A stretch of DNA of 64,000 bases from Candidatus Poribacteria bacterium (GTDB taxonomy: Bacteria; Poribacteria; WGA-4E; WGA-3G): positions 3,904,001 through 3,968,000 of the forward strand of contig OZ251518.1 of the NCBI GenBank assembly GCA_965242965.1, written 5' to 3'. Below the pieces are notes generated by a model. The model searched no databases. It was not told the DNA's origin and saw only the letters and a program-made list of their open reading frames with translations. The position numbers and the translations under genes were made by a program. Below are positions 12,664-45,905 of this stretch, piece after piece; position 1 is the stretch's first letter; each line of letters opens with the position of its first letter.

Positions 12664-15600
12664 CTACTCCCGCTGCTTGACTTCGCCGAACGTTGTCAAT
12701 GAACGATTCGCCGGGGAAACGGGACCCGGTAAGTAACGTGTCCGCAACGTCTCCGGCCGACCGCCTAACGAAACCTCTTCGATCTGGTAGTAATACTCGA
12801 CCCCAGGTTTCGCAGATGTATCGGTGAACGTGTAAGTTTGACGCTCGCCTGTCGTGCCGGCACCAGCTATCAAGACAGGATTCAACAACGTAAATCCACT
12901 CTCGCGTTTCAAGCTGCGACGCAGATTGAAACCGGCATTGTCGACTTCCGACTCGGTTGTCCAAGTCACGACAACGGAACCGGCATCGGTACGCGACACC
13001 GTGAAACTAGACAATTCCACGGGCAAAGCACCGCCTTCCCGATACCCCGGCGTGCCAATGTCATCGGCATTGCCGTAATGCAGCGATTCAACTTTGAATT
13101 TATTGAAATGCGCCGCTAATGCCCAATTCGACTTCAACATCCCATCGCGCGCCACCGCGCCTTTATCGTAACGGCGGATGACCGAACTCCGCGCGCCATC
13201 CCTGCGATTCGTGGGCCACACCCAGACAGGCGCATCATCGGTACGACGATTGTCATCGATGTTCCCAACCTCGTCTATCTTCGTTCCGTTTCGATCGGAT
13301 AACTTGAGGTAGAAACCCTCGCCACTTAAGAAGGTATCTCGCGCGGTTTTGATGCGCAGATTCTTCTCGTGCAGTTTGAGCAGGTTGTAAACCCGGTCTT
13401 CAGGGAAGACATCTGCCGAGGAGGCGCGGGCATCGCCTGCCACTATCAAGAGGGTCTGATTCGGTTGAATCACTTTCTCTTGCAGCGTCAACGTGACGAT
13501 GGGTCTGCCAACCAAATCTCCTGAATTCCGATTCTGAATCTCTAACTGCCAGCGATTCAGGTTCAGTGCCTCGGTTTTCGACTTGTTATAGAGTTCGATC
13601 CATTGCGGCAATGTGCCACCCTCGGAATCAAACATGATTTCGCTGATAGTCACCGCACCCTTCGGCGTAGATGCCTCCGTTTTGACAGCACCATTCGGAT
13701 AGCCCGGCGTGCCGGCAGTGGCAGCCGACTTGGAGACCTTTCTGTCATAGCCGATACCGGTAAACGCAGCTTCTGCCCAGGCATCTCTGTGATATCCGAT
13801 AAGATCCGCTTTGGCGCGCTGCCAGACTTTACCGGAACTGAGCGCATCTTCGGTGGCATCACCAGGTGCCTCAAGCACCTGCAGGGGCCAGACATGCGTA
13901 TCGTAGTCCCCGGTTTCATCGCGGATAAAGGCATCCGTATCGCTGCCGCCGCCCCCGGCGACATCAATGAACGCCTCATCCAAGCCGAGTTTCTCCTTGG
14001 CATTCCGGAGAATCAATAGGAATTTGCCATCATCCGGCAGTGAAAGGCCTGCATCCACTAAAGATGCATGCGATAACCCTCTGTTTTCTCCGCCGGCGAG
14101 TGGCGTTTTATCCGACGCGCTGTTTGTTATCAACAACAAGCCGTTCGCCGGCACACTCACATCCGGGAAGATGATAAGCGAGGTATCTTCCTTTTTTCCA
14201 TCGGCGACAACGGAGAGCTCCCAGTCTTTCAGGGAGACATCTGAACCGCTGACGTTGCGGAATTCTAGCCAGTCATTTGCTGCATCACTGCCATTGCCGA
14301 GCTCGTTGAAAACGACAGGAGAAAGCGGCACAGCCGATGCAACTGCCTTTGAGACAGTGTCATCCTGCGGAATGTAAACCACCGGGGTCACCGCCACATC
14401 AAACGTTTTCAACGGTTCAGAGGATGAATCCGGGACCTGTGCAGCCTCACCCGGTGCCATCGCCGGATCGGCGGTACCACGACGCTCAAGCCCTGATGAA
14501 GCCTTCAACGTCGTCTCACGCGGCACAGCTAAACTGTTGATACTGGCAATCTCCACGCTCACCGATGCAGCCGGCGGATCGGTCGCTTGCAAAACATACG
14601 CAAACGGCACAATCGTTGAACCCGAACGCTCCTCGCCTTGCTGCCACACGGCGTGCCGCGCATTCGCGGCTTCTCGCGCGCCGAGATAGATTGTCACATA
14701 CGGCGGGTTTTCGCCTTCATACGTCAATCCATCCTGCGCAAACGGCACCTCAACGGTGATCTCGCTACCCGCAAGATATGCACCGCCTTCCGGCTCAACG
14801 ACTTTAATCTCATCCGCATCTACCTGCACCGTGTCTACCTGCACCGTAACAGTGTTCGATGCCAAATTGCCGAGCGGGTCAGAGTAGTCGGCAAGCACCG
14901 TATCGGCGGGCACCTGGAACGTCATCTCCCCTTTAAAGCCGAGCGGGGGCACTACCGTCACCGGATACTGCAGCCACGCATCCACCGCGTCAGGACGGCT
15001 CACCGTCACCTTGCCATCCCCAACATCTGCAGACAGCGTGGTTTGAAGCGTCGTGAATAGCTCTTCGTTCGCCAAATCATGAGACGCAGCGGTTTTCACA
15101 TGCCCGGCTGCAGTGTAGTCCTCCTGGAACCGCAATGTCAACGTAAACGTCCCGGTTTGTGTCCCCGATGGCCCGTCTATCACTGTCATCGCGGCGACAG
15201 CGTCCTTCACTACCGCCGGATAGGCGATAGTGCCCTTGGCGGTAGTATCATACGTGGGCGGAAAGTAGTGAGGGAACTTGAGCCGCTCATCCCTATAAAA
15301 ACCCACCGAGACACTATAGTGCTGTACGCGACCATCGGCATCGGCCTTCTGCTTCAGCTTCTCCACGTCACCGCCGGTGTAGTCCACTATGTCATCAATT
15401 ATTGGGAGGTAGTCAAGGAGACGGTCGCCGTTTCTGTCAAAATGCTCTGGCTTGAATACGAAATCCCCCCCGTTTTGGTAACGAGTATCGCCTCCCCCAA
15501 TACGCAGCCTGTGGTGACGAAATTGATCCTTCTTGTCGTCAGCGGGATCGACGGTGTCGGGACTCTCTGGGTAGGGGAGGAATGTTTCTCCCGCCTTGAA

Positions 15601-17112
15601 AAGCGCAGACGGGTCCATAAAATCTGCCCATCGCTTACCCTGTTGCCCTTCATCAGAAGTATCACCAAATGGCACGCCAAATCCAAACTCCCCAGCGTGT
15701 AGCCCTAGGATTTGAGCGTATGTGTAACCGTTGGGGTATTTCAGACCGCCAAGGAAGTCGCCGCCGATGCGACCGTTGGCCAATAAATCAGCGTATTCGT
15801 AATTAATACCGACACGCGGACGGTATGGGACATTGAACGGGGCCACGATAGTGTCGCCATCCCCCTCCAACCATCCGTCGCCTTTCTTCAACCGATTCAA
15901 GGCATCTGCATGTTCCTTTGTCACCGTAAATTGGTAGACGACGGTATGGTAACCATCCACATCGGGATGCCCCCACTCCGTAGCGGTAACCGCATGGTCG
16001 GCATTGAGGTGGTTTACGCGGCCATCCTGTGTTATCCGTTCCAGTGGATAATTGGGATTCAGTCTCCCTACCCCGTCAATGCCCACGGCTGCAATTACCG
16101 TCCCGCCGTTAGCATCCCGGAGGGAATTGCGCGCCCAGATAGTGCCTGGCGGGTTCGCCTTTTGACCATCCTTGAACCATAATGGCAATTCATTCACCTC
16201 CCAGGGGACATCACGGGCAACGGAGCCGCCAGTGGATCTGCTCCAGGGGGCATTACGGCGATCGGCATAGAAACCGGGGCCGCGAGTGAATTTGGTGTTA
16301 CTAAAGAGTGCCGGAAGCGTTAGAGGCTCCTCCTTGGTAGGATCTATATAATAACTCCTCGGATCCAGACCAGGCGCAGGATCTATGAATTCCGTTACCA
16401 CTTCATAGTAAGTCAGTTTGACGTTGATGGCGATGGCGACGATATCCCCGGGGACTACCCACGTATTTTCCTCGGCGGTGACACGCCCACTGTTGCCGGG
16501 TTTGTTCGGATCTTCCAGCAGGCCGCCGCTCGTGGGATCGCTGGGACCCCCACCGGGATCGATATTCACCCAGAAGTAGGTATCCGTCTCGTTTGCCAGT
16601 TGCGCTGTGCCATTCAAGAGCTCCTCATACTCTGTCCAGAAGGATGGGAACAGCCGCGCGCGCCTGCTTTCAAAACCGGGCGGCGTAACAACATAATTCG
16701 TGTCAGTGCCTACCTTGTGATAGGTACCGACCTGCTGCAGTTCTGGCGCTCCCAGCTTCGTGGTTTTCGGATTTTTATAGATGCGTATCCACTGAATCTG
16801 AAAATAATCCGGCGGGCAAGCTGTCAACCCGCCACCAAAGAAGGCATCAATACCCGTAGAATGGATGTGGGCGTTACCGGATCCGGCGGACACGCTGTGG
16901 GTCGAATCGTTCGGCAGCGTAATCGCTGACTTCTGCAATTTATGGGTTGCCAGGGGCAGGCCCAGCCAATTATTATCCGGGTTGCCCTCGGTGCCCTGGA
17001 TGATATCAAAGGCATCACTCCCGATATCTTCTTGCGTCCATGTGTCGTGGCTCTCTCCCGGCGGTGCAAGCACCGTCAGCAGCCCGAATGTGAGCAGTAG
17101 GCAGCCTATCAA
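12664..17112 (-). CDS. giant secreted lamin-tail-domain/Ig-like protein; true start probably at 17345 via frameshift
   Basis: two LTD-like domains (VVFNELGN..DWLE; TISEIMFD..QWIELYN), LPVELSSF domain, LTTFGEVK tail; no SD at TTG 17112, frame open up to 17229. Confidence 0.85.
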   Translation of the reverse strand: MIGCLLLTFGLLTVLAPPGESHDTWTQEDIGSDAFDIIQGTEGNPDNNWLGLPLATHKLQKSAITLPNDSTHSVSAGSGNAHIHSTGIDAFFGGGLTACPPDYFQIQWIRIYKNPKTTKLGAPELQQVGTYHKVGTDTNYVVTPPGFESRRARLFPSFWTEYEELLNGTAQLANETDTYFWVNIDPGGGPSDPTSGGLLEDPNKPGNSGRVTAEENTWVVPGDIVAIAINVKLTYYEVVTEFIDPAPGLDPRSYYIDPTKEEPLTLPALFSNTKFTRGPGFYADRRNAPWSRSTGGSVARDVPWEVNELPLWFKDGQKANPPGTIWARNSLRDANGGTVIAAVGIDGVGRLNPNYPLERITQDGRVNHLNADHAVTATEWGHPDVDGYHTVVYQFTVTKEHADALNRLKKGDGWLEGDGDTIVAPFNVPYRPRVGINYEYADLLANGRIGGDFLGGLKYPNGYTYAQILGLHAGEFGFGVPFGDTSDEGQQGKRWADFMDPSALFKAGETFLPYPESPDTVDPADDKKDQFRHHRLRIGGGDTRYQNGGDFVFKPEHFDRNGDRLLDYLPIIDDIVDYTGGDVEKLKQKADADGRVQHYSVSVGFYRDERLKFPHYFPPTYDTTAKGTIAYPAVVKDAVAAMTVIDGPSGTQTGTFTLTLRFQEDYTAAGHVKTAASHDLANEELFTTLQTTLSADVGDGKVTVSRPDAVDAWLQYPVTVVPPLGFKGEMTFQVPADTVLADYSDPLGNLASNTVTVQVDTVQVDADEIKVVEPEGGAYLAGSEITVEVPFAQDGLTYEGENPPYVTIYLGAREAANARHAVWQQGEERSGSTIVPFAYVLQATDPPAASVSVEIASINSLAVPRETTLKASSGLERRGTADPAMAPGEAAQVPDSSSEPLKTFDVAVTPVVYIPQDDTVSKAVASAVPLSPVVFNELGNGSDAANDWLEFRNVSGSDVSLKDWELSVVADGKKEDTSLIIFPDVSVPANGLLLITNSASDKTPLAGGENRGLSHASLVDAGLSLPDDGKFLLILRNAKEKLGLDEAFIDVAGGGGSDTDAFIRDETGDYDTHVWPLQVLEAPGDATEDALSSGKVWQRAKADLIGYHRDAWAEAAFTGIGYDRKVSKSAATAGTPGYPNGAVKTEASTPKGAVTISEIMFDSEGGTLPQWIELYNKSKTEALNLNRWQLEIQNRNSGDLVGRPIVTLTLQEKVIQPNQTLLIVAGDARASSADVFPEDRVYNLLKLHEKNLRIKTARDTFLSGEGFYLKLSDRNGTKIDEVGNIDDNRRTDDAPVWVWPTNRRDGARSSVIRRYDKGAVARDGMLKSNWALAAHFNKFKVESLHYGNADDIGTPGYREGGALPVELSSFTVSRTDAGSVVVTWTTESEVDNAGFNLRRSLKRESGFTLLNPVLIAGAGTTGERQTYTFTDTSAKPGVEYYYQIEEVSLGGRPETLRTRYLPGPVSPANRSLTTFGEVKQRE

Positions 17113-17186
17113 AACGGAGTGGATGCGTGCGGCGGACCGCGGGTGTCCCCCGTCCTTCTGCGCCTTCCTGCTGAGAGTTGCAGGAG

Positions 17187-17345
17187 TTAACGCGCGTAGA
17201 TGAGAGGGGGGGTCTTCAGGTTGGACGCGTCACCGGCGGGCGCATGCGCGCGGCATCTTTGCAGCGGGTGCTGCAATAACGCGGTGACGGTAGGTTTCAG
17301 GCGGACAGCAATGCCCGCGAAAATGAAAGAGAATAGGAATCTCAT
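17187..17345 (-). CDS. 52-aa leader ORF ending TPPLIYAR*, containing a C7 tract
   Basis: SD GAGGAG before ATG 17345; overlaps the main ORF frame (-1) across the poly-C at 17206-17212. Confidence 0.65.
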   Translation of the reverse strand: MRFLFSFIFAGIAVRLKPTVTALLQHPLQRCRAHAPAGDASNLKTPPLIYAR

Positions 17346-17442: not shown

Positions 17443-18075
17443 GAGCAGGATTTTGAGCAGGATTTTCAAGATTTACACGATTTCACAGGATTAGGTCTGT
17501 GGCTACGGTGAAACGGAAACGGCCTTGCATACCGTAGCGCGGGGGCCTGTCCCCCGCGAGCGTTCACGTGAAAACATCTCTTCAGGTCCTTTAGGTCCTG
17601 CATGTCTATAGTATCCCCGACCTCAAAAAACGCTAAGGTCCTTTAGGTCCTTAATAGTCAGGAGATGCAACGTCGCGAGGAACATTAAGGTCCTAAAGGA
17701 CCTTGAGGGGTATTGCATCGGCGCGCGCTATAGACATTAAGGTCCTACGGACCTTGAAGAGACTGTAGTTCGGGAGCGCCCGCTCCCGAACGGGTCAAGA
17801 GCAGGCGCTCTTGACCTACAGAAGGGATGCGCGCACGCGTGCCCGATGGCATAGCGAGGGACAGGCCCTCGCCCTACGGTAAACGGCACGTTTTTCCCCC
17901 GCGAGCACCCGATCCGCGCGAAAAACGCACGCAGACAAAGGCTGTTTCCTCGATCGAGGCATGGCGAGGGACAGGCCCTCGCCCTACGGTGACGACGCTA
18001 TAATCTTGCTAATCGTGATAATCCTGATCATCCTGCTCCAGATTACACACCTCAAGACCGAAGAACTCTCCTACT
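17443..18075. repeat. composite REP cassette (AGGTCC palindrome at 17577-17762)
   Basis: GTAG REPs, four AGGTCC hairpin units, flanking 9-bp GATT/AATC repeats. Confidence 0.9.
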
Positions 18076-40081: not shown

Positions 40082-40445
40082 TCCTGGTAAATCTTGGAAA
40101 TCGTGATAATCCTGCTCGGATTTACAAGATTCGCGGGATGTGGAGCAGGATTTACAAGATTATCACGATTAGCAAGATGCGAAGAACGGCCCGTTTTACC
40201 GTAGGGCGAGGGCCTGTCCCTCGCCAGGCAACGATCGCGAGGGAAACCCGCTCGGACGCGCTGGGCAGAGCACCCACGCCCTACGGAGCCTGAAACGATC
40301 GCGGGGGACAGGCCCCCGCGCTACGGTAGCCAGAACGGCCCGTTTTTTCGTAGGGCGAGGGCCTGTCCCTCGCCATGCACCGATCGCGGGGGAGACCCGC
40401 TCGGAGCCTGAAACGATCGCGGGGGACAGGCCCCCGCGCTACGGT
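40081..40445. repeat. 9-bp periodic repeats plus REP tandem
   Basis: AATCCTG/CAGGATT periodic arms in inverted orientation; GTAG REPs. Confidence 0.85.
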
Positions 40446-40456
40446 ACTGAGCACGG

Positions 40457-43400
40457 CTATTCTTGCCGTTTCACCTCACCGAACGTAGTCAGCATCCGAT
40501 TAGATGCGGAAACAGGACCCGGCAACAACCGCGTCACTAACGTCTCTGGCTTACCATCAAACGCAACTTCCTCGATCTGATAATAATACTCAACCCCCGG
40601 CTTCGCAGACGTATCCGTAAACGTATACGTCTGACGTTCGCCTGTTGTGCCGGCACCGGCGATTAAGGCAGGATTCAAAAGCGTGAAACCGCTCGCGCGC
40701 TTTTCACTGCGGCGCAGATTGAAACCCGCGTTGTCGACTTCTGATTCGGTTGTCCATGTCAAGACAACAGCACCAGCTTCATTGCGCATCATCGAGAAAC
40801 TGGATAACTCTACCGGCAATGCACCGCCTTCGCGATGCCCCGGTGTGCCGATGTCCTCAGCATGGCCGTAGTGGAGAGACTCATCAAACGGCTTGATGCG
40901 CGCTGCCAACACCCAACTCGCACGCTTTTGTCCCGGCAGCGCAACACTCTTGTCATAACGCCGAATGACAGAACTCCGCGAACCTTCCTCAAAACTCAAC
41001 GGTAATGCCCATGCAGGTGCATCGTCCGAACGCCGATCGCTGTCCCTGTTACCGACTTCGTCTACCAGATTCCCGTTCCTATCGGAGAGTTGCAGGTAGA
41101 ATCCTTCGGTACTTAAGAACGTATCGCGCGCACGCTTGATGCGCAGATTCTTCTCGTGCAGTGCCAACAGGTCGTAAATTCTGTCCGCCGGCAGATACGA
41201 ATCCGACGACGCACGCGCCGGTCCTGCCACAATCAAGAGCGTCTGATTTGGCTGAATCACTTTTTCGCCAAGCGTCAGCGTGACAATCGGGCGGCCGACT
41301 AAATCCTCGGAATCGACATTCTGAATCTCCAACCTCCACCGGTTGAGATTAATGGCATCCGTTTTGGAATTGTTGTAGAGTTCAATCCATTGCGGCAATG
41401 TGCCGCCACCCGAATCAAACATGATTTCGCTGAGCGTGACACTTCCCTTCGGCGTAGCGGCTTCCGTTTTCACCGCACCATTCGGATAGCCCGGCGTGCC
41501 GGAAGTGGCAGGAGACTCTGTCACCTTCCTATCATAGCCGATACCGGTGAACGCCGATTCTGCCCAGGCATCCTTGTGGTATCCCACAATGTCCGCCTTC
41601 GTGCGCTGCCAGACTTTGCCTGAGCCGAGGGCATCTTCAGTGTCACCACCCGGTGCCTGCAACACTTGCAAGGGCCAGACATGCGTATCATAGTCGCCTG
41701 TCTGCTCGCGGACAAACGCATCGGTGTCGCTGCCGCCGCCACCGGCGACATCCACGAATGCCTCGTTCAAGCCGCGTTTATCCTTCGCGTTGCGGAGAAT
41801 CAAAAGGAATTTTCCATCGTCAGGTAGGGACAACTCCGATTTGACAAGATACAGGTGCGAAGAACCTTTTGTCTCCACCGCGGCAGTCGCCACGTTATCA
41901 CCACCGGCGAGCGCATTGCCTTCCGCCGTTGGATCGCTGTTCGTTATCAACAACAGCCCGTTCGCAGGCACGCTCACATCTTCCACAAAAGCAATCAGGG
42001 AAGTATCTTCCTTCTTGCCATCTTGCACGATGCTGAGCTCCCAGTCTTTTAACGAGACAGCAGATCCTGTCACATTGCGGAGTTCCAACCAGTCATCAGT
42101 ATCGCCGCTACCATTGCCGAGTTCGTTGAAGACAACGGGGCTGCGCGGCACATCCGATGCGGCCGCCTTCGGTTCTTCCACCTGGAAAATCGGGAAGACC
42201 GGCAACACCGGCGACTCCTGCATCACCGTGGGGACCTGCCGCCCTGACGTATCTACCAACGGCAACTGCCCCCGAGCCGGGACCCGAGCAGGAACTTCAC
42301 CAGAACCTTTCACTTCCTCCTGACTGGTACCCGCTAACTGACTGCCACCGGCATCCACCAGCCGCGTCCCCACCGGCACCGTTAACCCAACAGGCGCAAC
42401 GCTTATTGAATCCGCAACGTCAGTGACTGCCACCGTATACGCAAACGTCACTTTCGTGGAATTCGCATCCGCGGCGGCTTGCCATGTCGCATGCCGGGCA
42501 TTTGCCGGCACTTCTTCGCCGAGATACAGCGTCAGATACGGCGGGGCATCGCCTTCATAGCGGAGGCCTTCCCGATTATACGTTACTTCCACCTCAATCT
42601 TCTCACCGGCGGTATAAACACCGGCGGCAGGCTCAACTATCTCCGGGGTTTCCACCACCTGAAACGGGATGTTCACCGGCACTGTCAACGTATTGGATGC
42701 CAGACTATCGTTGCCTGCGATGTCCTGTGTTGCACCGGCGGGCACACTGATAGCCACGTCGCCCTGAAAACCGAGAGGCGGCGCAATCGTCGCCTTGTAA
42801 ACTAGAAACGAGGCAGAGTTTTTCGCATCACCGGGGGAATGAAGCGAACCAGGCGGATTGCTCCGACCGGGAGGCGGCCACTGATTGGTAGCACGATGGT
42901 CCAACCCGATATAGGTAGTTTCAACCTCCCACTCAGATCTCACCACATTCGCACCGGTAATCTCCACATCATCGCCGGTAAAACTCGTCCCCACTTCGTC
43001 GGCTATCGCGCCCGGCTCGTTGAAAAAGCGGAATTCAACATCAAAGGCCCCTGTCTGGACATCGCTTTCCGTGACAGCCGCGCGGAAATCGTCCGCTGTC
43101 ATCGCGGGGATTGCGGTATACGTCGGATCCAGATTCACCACGGCAATCCGTCTATCCTCTCTGTGCGTTTCACCGTTCTTTATCACGCCGGGAATCCAGA
43201 CTGTCGCGGGGATGGTATCCACGAGGTACTTGATGATGCCTCGGGCATAGTCAGCGTGGTGTTCCCCCGGCGGATCTATCCACGGATCTGCCTCGCTCGT
43301 CGCCGTTAGCATCTGCCCGGAAAAAAACGAGCGGAACTGCGTTTCAAGCCCCAAGGCAACCGAATTAGGAACATTGGGGATTCTGGCTACCTCGTGGCCT

Positions 43401-44563
43401 GCTCTATCGGTTATCTTCCCCTCCCCAATCCGTCTCAGTCCGTGTGCAGACCCGAGTCCACCGAAGGTGTGCTGCCCTTCTTGCACCGTCCATCGGAACG
43501 TGAGGGTATCGGTGCCGCTGCCGGAGATATATTCCGCATCTGCGAAAAAACTATCGGCCTTCATGTTCAGGGTCGGTATCCCCGTTACAACAACATCTTC
43601 ATTAAATGTCACAGAGACTTCTATCGTGTCGCCGGCGCGGTAATAGGCAGCCTCCGGGCTATTGGCCAACGTCACCGGCTTCGCACCCGTGGGAAGAGCC
43701 CAACCAAAGTCGTGCACAAGGTCACACGCTGCGGTGTAGGTATCACCGTATTTCCGGTGATCCACCAAGCACTCTTGACGCACCTTGTGATAGCGGGAAG
43801 GAGCAGGCCCTCTCGGGGCAGTGTTTATCTTAATGCTCCGAACCTCCGGAGCCGACGAAACGCTCCCATCTACTTTAGGGTAGTAAACTGTTCCCTGCCA
43901 ATTGACATTGTTGAGAGCAGGCCTATTGTCATAGCTATGCGCGACACTGCGCACACGCCCAACTCCAAAGGGAATAATCCCGCTTGCGTCGCTATCAAGC
44001 CAAGCACCGTTCCCATCTTCATCATCTTCCTGAACGGTGTAGACATAAACAGCGGTGAACTTTGCTTCGTTCGCCTGCAATGCGGCCCAGCTATTACCAC
44101 CGAGATGTTGTTCCAGAACACGATTGGGACCTATGAGCTCCCTAATACCGCGGATAGGGGTGTCACGAGAGGGGCCTTCGGTATCAAATGCAACTTTTGC
44201 CCATCCGCCGACATTGTTGACATTGTTTAACCGGATCGCAACCGCGATTTTCGTTCCTTCTCCCGCTAGGGCTGGCGTAGCACTGTTGACATCGTTGTTT
44301 GCATCTATCAACGTGCCATTTCGAGGCTCACCGTTGGCATCTATCGGGACATAATCCCTGGGGTGATCGCCCCGCCCTGGGAGATCTGGATTTGTATGCC
44401 TTCTCCACTCCGTGTCGGGGTTAAGGTAAATCCGAATCCATTCAATTGTGGGGGCTTCATGCCCCGGTGCGCCATCGGCATAGGCAACGTTCGGTGTTGC
44501 TCCGAATAGGGAAACTGTCCCTACAAGCAGCAAGAGGATTAAGCAAAAAGTGTTACGTTTCAT
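40457..44563 (-). CDS. giant secreted lamin-tail-domain/Ig-like protein (paralogue of 12664-17112)
   Basis: signal peptide ...NVAYA; SD AAGGAG; two LTD-like domains; LPVELSSF; LTTFGEVK tail. Confidence 0.9.
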   Translation of the reverse strand: MKRNTFCLILLLLVGTVSLFGATPNVAYADGAPGHEAPTIEWIRIYLNPDTEWRRHTNPDLPGRGDHPRDYVPIDANGEPRNGTLIDANNDVNSATPALAGEGTKIAVAIRLNNVNNVGGWAKVAFDTEGPSRDTPIRGIRELIGPNRVLEQHLGGNSWAALQANEAKFTAVYVYTVQEDDEDGNGAWLDSDASGIIPFGVGRVRSVAHSYDNRPALNNVNWQGTVYYPKVDGSVSSAPEVRSIKINTAPRGPAPSRYHKVRQECLVDHRKYGDTYTAACDLVHDFGWALPTGAKPVTLANSPEAAYYRAGDTIEVSVTFNEDVVVTGIPTLNMKADSFFADAEYISGSGTDTLTFRWTVQEGQHTFGGLGSAHGLRRIGEGKITDRAGHEVARIPNVPNSVALGLETQFRSFFSGQMLTATSEADPWIDPPGEHHADYARGIIKYLVDTIPATVWIPGVIKNGETHREDRRIAVVNLDPTYTAIPAMTADDFRAAVTESDVQTGAFDVEFRFFNEPGAIADEVGTSFTGDDVEITGANVVRSEWEVETTYIGLDHRATNQWPPPGRSNPPGSLHSPGDAKNSASFLVYKATIAPPLGFQGDVAISVPAGATQDIAGNDSLASNTLTVPVNIPFQVVETPEIVEPAAGVYTAGEKIEVEVTYNREGLRYEGDAPPYLTLYLGEEVPANARHATWQAAADANSTKVTFAYTVAVTDVADSISVAPVGLTVPVGTRLVDAGGSQLAGTSQEEVKGSGEVPARVPARGQLPLVDTSGRQVPTVMQESPVLPVFPIFQVEEPKAAASDVPRSPVVFNELGNGSGDTDDWLELRNVTGSAVSLKDWELSIVQDGKKEDTSLIAFVEDVSVPANGLLLITNSDPTAEGNALAGGDNVATAAVETKGSSHLYLVKSELSLPDDGKFLLILRNAKDKRGLNEAFVDVAGGGGSDTDAFVREQTGDYDTHVWPLQVLQAPGGDTEDALGSGKVWQRTKADIVGYHKDAWAESAFTGIGYDRKVTESPATSGTPGYPNGAVKTEAATPKGSVTLSEIMFDSGGGTLPQWIELYNNSKTDAINLNRWRLEIQNVDSEDLVGRPIVTLTLGEKVIQPNQTLLIVAGPARASSDSYLPADRIYDLLALHEKNLRIKRARDTFLSTEGFYLQLSDRNGNLVDEVGNRDSDRRSDDAPAWALPLSFEEGSRSSVIRRYDKSVALPGQKRASWVLAARIKPFDESLHYGHAEDIGTPGHREGGALPVELSSFSMMRNEAGAVVLTWTTESEVDNAGFNLRRSEKRASGFTLLNPALIAGAGTTGERQTYTFTDTSAKPGVEYYYQIEEVAFDGKPETLVTRLLPGPVSASNRMLTTFGEVKRQE

Positions 44564-44985
44564 CGAAAACTCCTTTGAAAAATATGGGATAGACGCACTG
44601 CGGAAACGTAGCGACGCGCGGCTTTCACCGAGAAGGTGAACGCGGTCTGGGACGCAGTGCGTTGTGAAGGTATTCTGGAAGAAAATTCTGAGAAAAACAG
44701 GGTAACCGTGGGCGGGTGCCCACGGTTATCCTGCCCCTTAATACCCCTAGTGGGGAGTGAATTTTCCCCGGAACAACACTGGTAACCGTTGCATCGGACG
44801 ATGCAACGTAAAAAGCCCCGTGGCAGGCGCGGACTCGCGTAGGCGAGCGCGTGCCACGAGGCAAAACAAAATAGGCGCGTGCAAAGCACGCGGGTTTTGG
44901 GTTGGGATGCAGATGAGATATTACCCCAGATCGCCTTCTTGCCGAGAACGTCAGAGGTTAACGGATATTTAGGACGGGGGGGGTA
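44560..44985 (-). other. -1-frame leader extension ending in an ATGA overlap with the downstream gene
   Basis: frame open from the poly-C (44976-44983) to TGA 44562-44560, which overlaps ATG 44563. Confidence 0.5.
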
Positions 44986-45167
44986 AATCGAATTATGTTC
45001 AGTGCGGTGTCATCAACAGGACGCGCAAATGGAGACACGGCGCGCAGCCGGGGTGGCTGGCACGTCGTTGCAATCGCGTTATTCGGGCGGATGTGGGTAT
45101 CCGCAATGAGAAAAACGGGTTGAGGGTTCACGTTTGGCATCCTTTGTTTCGTTTTCGCACTAAACAT
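44958..45167 (-). CDS. leader ORF ending TPPVLNIR*, containing a C8 tract (start uncertain: 45167, 45140 or 45131)
   Basis: ends with the same architecture as leader 17187-17345. Confidence 0.5.
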   Translation of the reverse strand: MFSAKTKQRMPNVNPQPVFLIADTHIRPNNAIATTCQPPRLRAVSPFARPVDDTALNIIRFTPPVLNIR

Positions 45168-45191
45168 GGCAATTTTTACTATATAGTATAT

Positions 45192-45220
45192 AGTATACCA
45201 CATTTTTGCGCGTTTGTCAA
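45192..45220 (-). promoter_or_regulatory. sigma70 promoter
   Basis: TTGACA-17 nt-TATACT with extended -10 TG. Confidence 0.8.
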
Positions 45221-45308
45221 ATTAAAATGTGATTTTAACAGATTTTTGCGTTTTTTTTCAAGATTTTTTGTGAAAAAAACGTTACGCGAAAAAAACCTCG
45301 TCCTCACC

Positions 45309-45905
45309 GTAGCGCGAGGGCCTGTCCCTCGCGATCGCTCGCTCACCGGAGCGTTTTCTCGATTCCCGGAGCGCGAGGGCCTGTCCCCCGCGAACGTTCG
45401 ATTATCCCGGGCACGGCGGGGGACAGGCCCCCGCCCTACGATAAGAGGGAGGCTGCTTCAATACCGTAGCGCGAGGGCCTGTCCCTCGCGATCGCTCGCT
45501 CACCGGAGCGTTCTCCCGATTCCCGGAGCGCGAGGGCCTGTCCCTCGCGAACGTTCGATTATCCCGGGCACGGCGGGGGACAGGCCCCCGCCCTACGATA
45601 AGAGGGAGGCTGCTTCGATTCCCGTAGCGCGAGGGCCTGTCCCTCGCGTGCTCTCACTCACCGGAGCGTTTTCCCGATTCCCGGAGCGCGAGGGCCTGTC
45701 CCGCGCGAACGTTCGATTATCCCGGGCACGGCGGGGGACAGGCCCCCGCCCTACGATAAGAGGGAGGCTGCTCCGAATTACCGTAGCGCGAGGGCCTGTC
45801 CCTCGCGATCGCTCGATCACCGTAGCGTTTTCCCGACAACCGGAGCGCGAGGGCCTGTCCCTCGCGATCTTTCGATTACCGTAGCGCGCGGTTTGTCCCG
45901 CGCGA
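45309..45905. repeat. tandem array of ~158-bp REP units (~3.5 copies)
   Basis: units start at 45309, 45466, 45624, 45783. Confidence 0.92.

Follow-up and report, generated by a model that had tools for sequence, protein, structure and literature searches.

Anatomy of the Leader

The stretch analyzed here (the window) is 64,000 nucleotides (nt) of DNA from a Candidatus Poribacteria bacterium (GenBank assembly GCA_965242965.1, contig OZ251518.1, positions 3,904,001 to 3,968,000 of the forward strand). Its minus strand carries at 45220-44560 the leader of a gene for a secreted protein with lamin-tail (LTD) domains (the LTD gene, 40457..44563). An original prediction, made from the letters alone, had described in this leader (locus 2) a poly-C tract in the same out-of-frame register as in the leader of a paralogous gene (locus 1), and had proposed a recoding or phase-variation cassette. 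Locus 2 belongs to the leader family called type B below. Its features, all on the minus strand, were as follows.

45192..45220, minus: promoter, TTGACA (45220-45215), 17-nt spacer and TG-extended TATACT (45197-45192), 11/12 matches
45140..45144, minus: Shine-Dalgarno (SD) sequence AAGGA, 8 nt 5' of the GTG of the upstream open reading frame (ORF)
44958..45131, minus: upstream ORF, frame 0, from GTG 45131 to TAA, 57 codons, VNPQPVFLIADTHIRPNNAIATTCQPPRLRAVSPFARPVDDTALNIIRFTPPVLNIR
44976..44983, minus: poly-C tract C8, ACC CCC CCC, Thr-Pro-Pro in frame 0; the proposed switch
44957..44962, minus: conserved GTTAAC, 13 nt 3' of C8, containing the frame-0 stop TAA 44960-44958
44560..45009, minus: −1 frame, 149 sense codons, opening just 5' of the tract
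44570..44576, minus: SD sequence AAAGGAG of the main gene
40457..44563, minus: main gene, secreted protein of 1368 amino acids with signal peptide MKRNTFCLILLLLVGTVSLFGATPNVAYA and two LTD domains (E = 4e-20)

All that had been stated of the promoter and leader sequence held. The 3' part of the leader reads TTT ACC CCC CCC GTC CTA AAT ATC CGT TAA, and the product of the upstream ORF reads VNPQ...IIRFTPPVLNIR up to the stop at 44960-44958. The −1 frame is shut upstream by TGA 45012-45010, and its own stop, TGA 44562-44560, overlaps the start codon ATG 44563-44561 of the LTD gene as ATGA. The 142 codons given for this frame in the original prediction are the part 3' of the tract; the total is 149. 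The opening was matched in extent by 4 of 300 shuffles. A −1 shift at the tract is predicted to join ...IIRFTPP to the −1 continuation.

The sigma-70 promoter block was kept in the other copies of the leader alignment. A promoter scan of locus 2 found no second minus-strand promoter-like site between the leader promoter and the LTD gene. The start of the upstream ORF was also conserved: homologous AAAGGAGCACGAAC-GTG was present in 10 of 10 leader copies of a congener (G002). Related upstream ORFs of that genome retained QPPRLRAVS.FA..PVDD, together with TPP..Y.. ahead of the stop.

Locus 1 (type A) was compared with locus 2. Two of its features define the arrangement.

17187..17345, minus: upstream ORF, ATG and 52 codons, MRFLFSFIFAGIAVRLKPTVTALLQHPLQRCRAHAPAGDASNLKTPPLIYAR, then stop
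12664..17229, minus: large ORF of 1521 codons in the −1 frame of its upstream ORF

The tract of locus 1 is C7 (17212-17206, minus strand) and GTTAAC stands at 17191-17186. The shared spacing that had been claimed was found: measured from the first C, GTTAAC is 21 nt away at each locus (C7 + 14 at locus 1, C8 + 13 at locus 2). The pattern ACCCCCCY-N8-16-CGTTAAC occurred twice in the window (17186-17213 and 44957-44984, both minus), with 0.01 expected and 0 of 100 shuffles reaching two. The downstream motif TCTCRGCARGAAGGCG, likewise said to be conserved, occurred twice with 0 mismatches (17161-17176 and 44932-44947; 0.16 expected, 1 of 100 shuffles reaching two). The large ORF of locus 1 is open from 17 nt 5' of the tract and has no ATG, GTG or TTG before a TTG inside the signal peptide. 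Its product and the LTD-gene product are paralogs, 65% identical over 797 residues. The peptide pattern that had been read in the −1 frame of both loci is mostly nucleotide conservation, and the same blocks are read in different frames among the copies.

Occurrence of the Module in the Genome

The core motif C(6-12)-N9-16-GTTAA was sought in the genome that contains the window (G000; 5.66 Mb and 38 kb in 2 contigs, 54% G+C) and in its relatives, and tract length was set against frame. G000 had a total of 58 sites, with tracts from C6 to C12. C/G runs of length 6, 7, 8 and 9 numbered 584, 106, 78 and 29, in excess over simple decay. GTTAA lay 9-21 nt 3' of 46 of the 118 C/G runs of at least 8, at exactly 13 nt in 28 cases; 5' of such runs it was found at 0 of 118. 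The full leader motif had 24 matches. Twenty-two of these have the promoter and leader in common and stand before genes whose secreted products are 400-1560 amino acids long; the leader alignment omits the other two (+797287 and +3566779), which have no promoter and leader homology.

The frame of the tract relative to an SD-preceded start was not random. The start was in the frame of TAA at 37 of the 58 sites, in +1 at 10 and in −1 at 6, and no such start was found at 5. An SD-preceded upstream ORF ending at this TAA was found over leader families of differing sequence. The upstream ORF of type A, the family of locus 1, reads MRILFS...TPPLIYAR then stop; type B is the family of locus 2; type C, with about 18 copies, reads VNQRIVFSIANEV...GGSTPPDTHRR then stop. 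Besides these, several smaller families of unrelated sequence occurred. The distance from start codon to tract was about 130-155 nt in most of the families despite their differing sequence. This constancy reflects either a common ancestor of all families or a constrained length of nascent chain or transcript before the tract.

Distribution among Relatives

The module was found well beyond this genome. Counts of the motif against a reversed-pattern control were 57 and 0 in G000, 33 and 0 in G002, 23 and 0 in G004, 27 and 0 in G009, and 21 and 4 in G001. It was present in 70 of the 111 genomes of the family, at 0 to 57 copies per genome. Other families of the phylum were mostly at chance level, with single look-alike copies in some genomes of a genus of the sister family (g11). 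The leader of locus 2 is one copy of a lineage-wide module of Candidatus Poribacteria. The out-of-frame arrangement of the original prediction recurred in a fragmented relative of 210 contigs. Several of the sequencing runs that contain the stretch are recorded as sponge metagenomes.

When 94 distinct instances from five genomes were aligned on GTTAA, the consensus was ...C(n)...cTt.Aca..c-GTTAA. The best-conserved positions of this flank are second codon positions of frame 0, giving a hydrophobic residue, Y/H/N, any residue, R/C/S and the stop.

Use of the −1 Frame and Variation of the Tract

The large ORFs without a start of their own behind type-A leaders were in the −1 frame of the upstream ORF in 8 of 8 cases (1437-1483 amino acids). 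Four further start-less large ORFs also lay in −1 (1363154; 5162590; 3710842, 1157 amino acids; 5384533, more than 2184 amino acids). All these ORFs open a few codons 5' of the tract, and upstream of the hydrophobic signal-peptide core they contain no ATG, GTG or TTG. The opening of the −1 frame in G001 is just two codons 5' of the tract and so fixes the frame change at the tract. The type-A junction is predicted as ...NLKTPP followed by SHLRALTPATLSR. In the alignments, the Arg codon of the basic n-region of the signal peptide varied synonymously in the −1 frame (CGC, CGG, CGA). The TTG inside the signal peptide was considered as the main start of type-A genes and was rejected: it has no SD sequence, it is the single candidate and is replaced by TTA in one copy, and the n-region codons upstream of it vary synonymously. 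For the type-A upstream ORF itself, differences at the three codon positions between G000 and G001 were 11/12/19-21, a weak excess at the third position; within G000 no such excess was found (39/42/34).

In type-B leaders, the −1 frame was depleted of stops. Stops in frames 0/+1/−1 numbered 43/55/13 in the 12 type-B leaders of G000 and 38/31/15 in 11 leaders of G002 and G001. The −1 stop lay at most 20 nt from the gene start in 8 of 28 G000 leaders, among them 3948983 (locus 2) and 4889647 with ATGA and 453532 with TGAATG. It was equally close in 2 of the 11 leaders from congeners, where L041 has ATGA. Leaders L086-L102 of G004 have both +1 and −1 open for about 400 nt past the tract (in L086, +1 to 409 and −1 to 398), unlike types B and C of G000, in which +1 is usually closed within 7-19 nt.

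In-frame ("ON") paralogs occurred in three genomes. In G000, the copy at 4262531 (C8) is a continuous fusion of 1562 amino acids from its ATG, and its sister at 2589655 (C10) stops at TAA; their flanks are 96% identical and without other indels. In G001, L116 (C8) is fused and its C7 sisters are stopped, and L126 has an interrupted tract (CCCCCG) and is fused. In G002, L119 (C9) is fused and L117 (C8) is stopped. Judged from these sequences, tract length is the main difference between near-identical ON and OFF paralogs. In a further observation, from position 734549 onward the main contig (C1) of G000 carries a giant ORF, about 7000 codons long, that encodes fn3 and cadherin domains and starts with MTMHYTDRDLTPPLTIRMLT...; its module (C8 + 14, flanked TTAAC...GTTAA) is in frame 10 codons past the ATG, which makes it an ON copy.

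The tract length also varied more than its surroundings. Run length differed in 48 of 106 same-genome paralog pairs of at least 90% identity; the flanks had 0.05 indel events per 8 nt. Some of the 48 are boundary substitutions, and the pairs, being paralogs, are not statistically independent. G000, G002, G004 and G009 had pure length variants in which every other indel was absent. The tract is accordingly read from these alignments as an indel hot spot. At C8 it has the length at which a G/C homopolymer in a coding region or leader is slip-prone (about 7-8 or more), and repeat number sets the frame open or closed in paralog pairs C8/C10, C9/C8 and C8/C7.

Genes behind the Cassette

Pfam domains encoded downstream were LTD, fn3, cadherin, LRR, cohesin, dockerin, TPR and TonB-dependent receptor, as well as trypsin-like peptidase, tyrosinase, LamG, AhpC/TSA-like protein and ABC-2 permease. 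In G009, of a sister genus, the module (C9, 12 nt, GTTAAG) lies inside three DNA-methyltransferase genes. Two of them (L111 and L113) are in tandem about 1.9 kb apart and encode DPPYNTG 3' of the tract, and the third (L093) has a motif of the GRRFIGVDIN type 5' of it. In each, frame 0 encodes the N-terminal part and −1 the remainder of the enzyme, and all three are stopped in the assembly. By their sequences they are candidates for phase-variable methyltransferases ("phasevarions") of a sponge symbiont. The predicted control of a surface-protein family is too narrow as a description, since the targets are wider than one family and include methyltransferase genes in the sister genus. Phase variation classically acts on surface proteins and mod-type methyltransferases, and by this analogy the targets of the cassette are typical of it.

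Terminator-like Hairpins and RNA Structure

The 651-nt leader of locus 2 folds with −238.7 kcal/mol, against −180.9 ± 5.1 kcal/mol for shuffles (z = −11.4). The structural features on the minus strand were as follows.

44866..44892, minus: terminator-like hairpin T1, CGCGTGC-TTT-GCACGCG and CCTATTTTGT; terminator scan (44892-44876)
44809..44862, minus: long hairpin T2, GCCTCGTGGCA...TGCCACGGGGC and TTTTTA; minimum-free-energy fold
44693..44728, minus: terminator-like hairpin T3, TAACCGTGGGC-ACCC-GCCCACGGTTA and CCCTGTTTTT; terminator scan (44728-44703), 11 pairs, 7 of them G-C
45087..45104, minus: hairpin GCGGAT-ACCCAC-ATCCGC inside the upstream ORF; minimum-free-energy fold
45045..45059, minus: hairpin CAGCC-ACCCC-GGCTG inside the upstream ORF; fold and alignment
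44924..44927, minus: G-run pairing with the C tract in the predicted fold; present in most type-A and type-B copies
45011..45017, minus: GTTGATG, which may pair as a 5' arm with CGTTAAC (44963-44957) around the tract
44932..44947, minus: purine-rich box TCTCGGCAAGAAGGCG, conserved in sequence, not as a hairpin

T1, T2 and T3 all lie inside the −1 ORF of locus 2. The T1 element was repeated in 7 of 12 type-B leaders of G000, with related variants in 2 more, and T3 was conserved in G000 and G002 leaders. T2 was not called by the simple terminator scan because its loop is too long. The elements are predicted, as pattern matches of a hairpin and a U tract. The 28 G000 leaders with a separately started gene had 31 of them, against 2.7 in shuffles. 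At least one occurred in 24 of the 28, with sequences that differ between families, and the −1 ORF spanned every element in 23 of the 24. Translational coupling rather than fusion had been predicted for locus 2. The ATGA overlap agrees with coupling; the two to three terminator-like hairpins within the −1 ORF make antitermination probably as important.

Both hairpins inside the upstream ORF showed changes that look compensatory in an alignment read by eye, without a covariation statistic. Other copies of the hairpin at 45087..45104 have GCAGAT/ATCTGC and GCGGGC/GTCCGC, and that at 45045..45059 has CCGCC/GGCGG in one copy and GCAGC/GCTGC in type A. Of 60 non-redundant sites, 20 had a helix of at least 7 pairs between an upstream arm and GTTAA; in two control regions the numbers were 8 and 6 of 60. 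The helix pairs GUUGAUG with CGUUAAC in type B and GCUUAAUGCC with GGCGUUAAGC in type C, and shows one apparent compensatory pair (ATTAAC with GTTAAT). As the reason for GTTAA conservation everywhere the helix was rejected, being enriched and not universal.

A stimulatory RNA structure downstream of the tract had been suspected, and folding gave no support for a conserved one: RNAalifold on 32 copies found no consensus helix 3' of the tract (−0.5 kcal/mol), and the CCTGC/GCAGG hairpin of type A was not kept in type B or G002. No Rfam family matched in the window at the gathering score; hits in the leader were at chance level, the best sub-threshold one having 17.9 bits against a threshold of 44. 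The purine-rich box YTCNGCAGGAAGGSG (44932-44947 and 17161-17176) was kept in types A and B and in G002 (GGCAGGAAGGGG). By its sequence it looks like an SD sequence or a GGA-type protein-binding site.

Proposed Mechanism and Alternative Explanations

The results suggested a conserved and undescribed recoding or phase-variation cassette, as had been proposed; its recurrence, its non-random framing and the fused paralogs that differ in tract length alone support this. The explanation that we favor, with some reserve, is slipped-strand phase variation of an upstream-ORF frame switch, acting by fusion at locus 1 and by antitermination and translational coupling at locus 2. A slipped-strand change of the tract is the most likely process because near-identical paralogs vary in length, three genomes have ON and OFF copies side by side, tracts extend from C6 to C12 and the targets are of a fitting kind.

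By this mechanism a strong promoter would drive a leader of about 650 nt, in which a translated upstream ORF of 57 codons with C8 comes first. In the C8 state, ribosomes would read five codons past Thr-Pro-Pro and end translation at the conserved TAA. The 400 nt that follow would then be untranslated, two or three hairpin-plus-U-tract terminators would form, and the LTD gene would be OFF or low. With C9, or an equivalent −1 slip, the same ribosomes would enter the −1 frame and continue for 149 codons through all terminator hairpins. This translation would keep the terminators from forming and deliver ribosomes to the start of the LTD gene at ATGA, giving the ON state. At type-A loci such as locus 1, the same shift would join the upstream ORF to the large start-less ORF. 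A heritable change of tract length, if it occurs at a useful rate, would amount to phase variation of a repertoire of eukaryote-like surface proteins.

Several points weigh against slipped-strand phase variation. The main gene has a good SD sequence and an ATG of its own, so its dependence on the upstream frame is presumed. The stopped frame 0 dominates (37 of 58 sites) and is the frame of every one of the 18 type-C copies. A hypermutable switch without bias would be expected to spread its copies more evenly over the frames, and a fixed recoding signal accounts for this dominance at least as well. Simple phase variation requires neither the exact 13-nt spacing nor GTTAA nor the conservation of the frame-0 tail. 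Past TAA, type-C leaders have as few stops in frame 0 as in −1 (15 vs 20), and the shuffle p-values of single leaders are modest (about 0.01-0.1). In G002 and G001 together, terminator-like elements numbered 6 against 1.4 expected and occurred in 6 of 11 leaders, and the −1 ORF spanned them in 3 of the 6. The paralogs, in addition, share descent and are not independent of one another. C9 contigs were seen at locus 2 in the read data of X1 (3 contigs, summed depth 5833/19372) and X6 (2 contigs, 34.5/34.5), none being seen in X2 and X3; those of X1 and X6 are unassignable to locus 2 because paralogs are up to 94% identical, or because they may come from other strains. This read evidence consists of short Logan contigs that map to several paralogs and are blind to minor variants, and it is neutral on heterogeneity.

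The frame-0 dominance, the invariance of type C and the conserved spacing, GTTAA and tail keep programmed −1 frameshifting, transcriptional slippage and a proline-sensing attenuator under consideration. In programmed recoding, which we hold to be a tentative alternative and on balance unlikely, the genomic tract would be meant to stay at the stopped length of a fixed frame 0. A ribosome would slip by −1 on C CCC CCC, or RNA polymerase would add a C; slow Pro-Pro bonds would help, and a set fraction would enter −1, possibly tuned by EF-P or prolyl-tRNA. The slippery heptamer is present in frame 0 (A CC|C CCC CCC|), and C CCC CCC obeys the X XXY YYZ rule for tandem slippage. Frame 0 at 37 of 58 sites and in all type-C copies, the same out-of-frame state in the fragmented metagenome-assembled genome (MAG), and the frame-0 stop at a fixed distance with a tail conserved at second codon positions are all expected of such a signal. 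The type-C tract pairs with an upstream G-run, which recalls the stem-loop-assisted transcriptional slippage reportedly described by Penno et al. in 2015. The frame arrangement is fixed in type C and in most of type A. Against this, tract length ranges from C6 to C12 and differs between near-identical paralogs, fused in-frame paralogs exist, and the frames 0/−1/+1 of type B are mixed (3/4/4 in G000 and 6/1/3 in G002). No conserved structure lies 5-9 nt 3' of the tract; the conserved element begins at 13 nt, beyond the range of a classical stimulator. To our knowledge, slippage is better documented on A or T runs than on C runs. A frameshift-suppressor or quadruplet-reading tRNA-Pro was also considered and rejected, as ARAGORN gave three tRNA-Pro genes (GGG, UGG, CGG) and flagged none as unusual. 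A related and also unlikely possibility is that the whole module (C-run, 13 nt with the ...CTT.ACA... core, GTTAA) serves as a portable signal for recoding, defined by its sequence and recognized by a mechanism of its own. Candidates for it are regulated frameshifting to −1 or slippage of the transcript, with EF-P, proline status or the frame-0 nascent tail as the tuning input, and a lineage-specific trans-acting factor that sets tract length. If so, one frame-switch code would serve a whole regulon of eukaryote-like surface proteins and methyltransferases, with upstream-ORF translation across serial terminators as its read-out.

A classical leader-peptide attenuator without frame change is improbable. 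Its Pro-Pro(-Pro) codons would sense proline supply or EF-P activity: a stalled ribosome would free the GTTAA region for an antiterminator, a ribosome at TAA would cover the region so that terminators form, and the open −1 frame would be incidental. Locus 2 has the SD-preceded short ORF, the regulatory codons five codons before the stop and the terminator hairpins after it, which is the layout of the trp and his leaders, and the constant 13 nt correspond to the distance that a ribosome footprint reaches. With the fold read by eye, parts of T2 and T3 have an alternative pairing (CCACGG with CCGUGG) as the single candidate for an antiterminator. Such an attenuator leaves unexplained the start-less −1 ORFs, the fused paralogs, the module inside methyltransferase genes, the threefold depletion of −1 stops, and why the Pro codons are always a pure C homopolymer. 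Quite improbable is a structured non-coding leader RNA, either a protein- or RNA-binding element or a Rho-loading site, in which the C tract pairs or binds, its length is nearly neutral and reading frames are irrelevant at locus 2. The very stable fold (z = −11.4), the pairing of the tract with the G-run, the apparent compensatory changes (by eye) in the upstream-ORF hairpins and the mixed frames of type B would suit it, and poly-C is the best-known Rho ligand. The conserved SD sequence and start codon, the enrichment of frame 0, the depletion of −1 stops and the recurring ATGA overlaps speak for translation instead, and neither an Rfam match nor a consensus structure 3' of the tract was found. 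An assembly artefact, in which long-read miscalls of homopolymers hide tracts one C longer and all ORFs are fused or in frame, is very improbable. G000, G002, G004 and G009 are assemblies of 1-4 contigs, probably from long reads, and nearly all coding-context G/C runs of at least 8 coincide with frame changes. However, 27 of 33 coding-context C7/G7 runs are in frame; only the in-frame counts of this homopolymer census were used, because its "shift-like" class is rich in false positives. A uniform correction of +1 would break 37 upstream ORFs that now end exactly at TAA. The 210-contig MAG has the same stopped arrangement next to one fused copy, a contig of X1 is identical to the C8 form from 44880 to 44996, and X2 and X3 gave no report of an indel in the tract. 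The 10 inspected frame changes at A/T runs were gene junctions or repeats.

Comparison with Known Systems

Homopolymer contingency loci with poly-G/C tracts are known in Campylobacter, Helicobacter, Neisseria and Bordetella, and the opa genes of Neisseria carry repeats in the signal-peptide region of a multigene family. As in these loci, a G/C run of 7-12 nt lies near the 5' end of genes for surface proteins and mod-like methyltransferases, the family has few in-frame and mostly out-of-frame members, and lengths differ between near-identical copies. In Poribacteria, unlike these loci, the tract is part of a sequence-defined module (tract, 13 nt, GTTAA), usually with a separate upstream ORF; the "on" frame crosses an otherwise non-coding, terminator-studded leader; and the stopped frame is strongly preferred. 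The comparison was made with portions of the literature on such loci (PMC2831843, PMC1891110, PMC5084427), and for Poribacteria it concerns length variation between paralogs.

Cassettes of −1 frameshifting or transcriptional slippage include dnaX, orfAB of the IS3 family, the phage tail chaperones G/GT and the T5C5 insertion sequence of Roseiflexus. Here, too, an upstream ORF ends shortly past a slippery run and the longer product lies in −1. The differences are that Poribacteria have no conserved stimulator at 5-9 nt, that run length is variable, and that in-frame and stopped copies coexist.

Phase variation through leader termination by DNA inversion is known for cwpV of C. difficile. Leader-peptide attenuators share with the cassette the short translated leader ORF, the codon run a few codons before the stop and the terminators 5' of the regulated gene. 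They include those of trp, his and phe and the Salmonella mgtP and mgtL leaders with Pro codons; together with the upstream-ORF-dependent Rho attenuation of tnaC, they are covered in part by the relevant sections of PMC12360218. The input proposed for Poribacteria differs, being the frame chosen at a homopolymer and not tRNA charging; the type-A loci have no terminator and would act by fusion only, and antiterminator pairing is only a candidate. The same source, in the sections that deal with inversion, describes leader termination switched by DNA inversion in E. coli fim and C. difficile flgB (PMC12360218). As far as those sections go, a heritable stochastic leader switch decides on termination before the gene, as is proposed here; those systems flip DNA segments by recombinases, while the Poribacteria switch would be a one-base change of the tract read by the ribosome.

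The nearest known systems are thus contingency loci, leader-peptide and upstream-ORF attenuators and leader termination by invertible elements, and the conserved flank could make the cassette more than a variant of these. No report linking Poribacteria to phase variation, homopolymer tracts or frameshifting was found in the literature searched. One candidate precedent for homopolymers was set aside, as the portion available was irrelevant (10.1101/2023.06.09.544420).

If slipped-strand phase variation is correct, the cassette would unite homopolymer slippage with leader-ORF-controlled termination or coupling in a compact and portable module that functions inside genes and leaders, with a conserved flank for which no current model accounts. 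A genome-wide switch of about 60 copies would let symbionts vary their surface stochastically, like mucosal pathogens. Poribacteria are uncultured and widespread sponge symbionts, and roles in host recognition and escape are ascribed to their eukaryote-like surface proteins (LTD, fn3, cadherin, LRR, TPR, cohesin/dockerin). For annotation, failure to recognize the frame switch would leave dozens of large genes in these genomes labelled as truncated, as start-less or as pseudogenes.

Other Repeats and C Tracts

A repetitive extragenic palindromic (REP)-like element, CGCGGGGGACAGGCCC(C/T)CGCGCTACGG, lies 5' of both leader promoters (window 45300-45400 and 17530-17580, minus strand) and recurs at numerous further places in G000. 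A related repeat family of about 30 copies, (A)nCG-C8-TCACCGTAGGGCGAGGGCCTGTCCCTCGCC, is the source of many C8 runs without GTTAA. Such repeats are also the cause of the very high summed depth of contigs, and of the numerous joints, at 40200-40450 and 45226-45850.

Further multi-copy C8-C11 families were present on the main contig of G000. Their tracts are followed by TTCA... and have no GTTAA at 13 nt, and some have GTTAAA at 21 nt. Such sites are 533461, 2200005 and 5439759; 2540469, 2542105, 2841489, 3319143, 3590607 and 2101457; 1035648 and 4926031; and 3638329 and 5336624. Several of them share TTCACAAACC with the type-A variant at 2589655.

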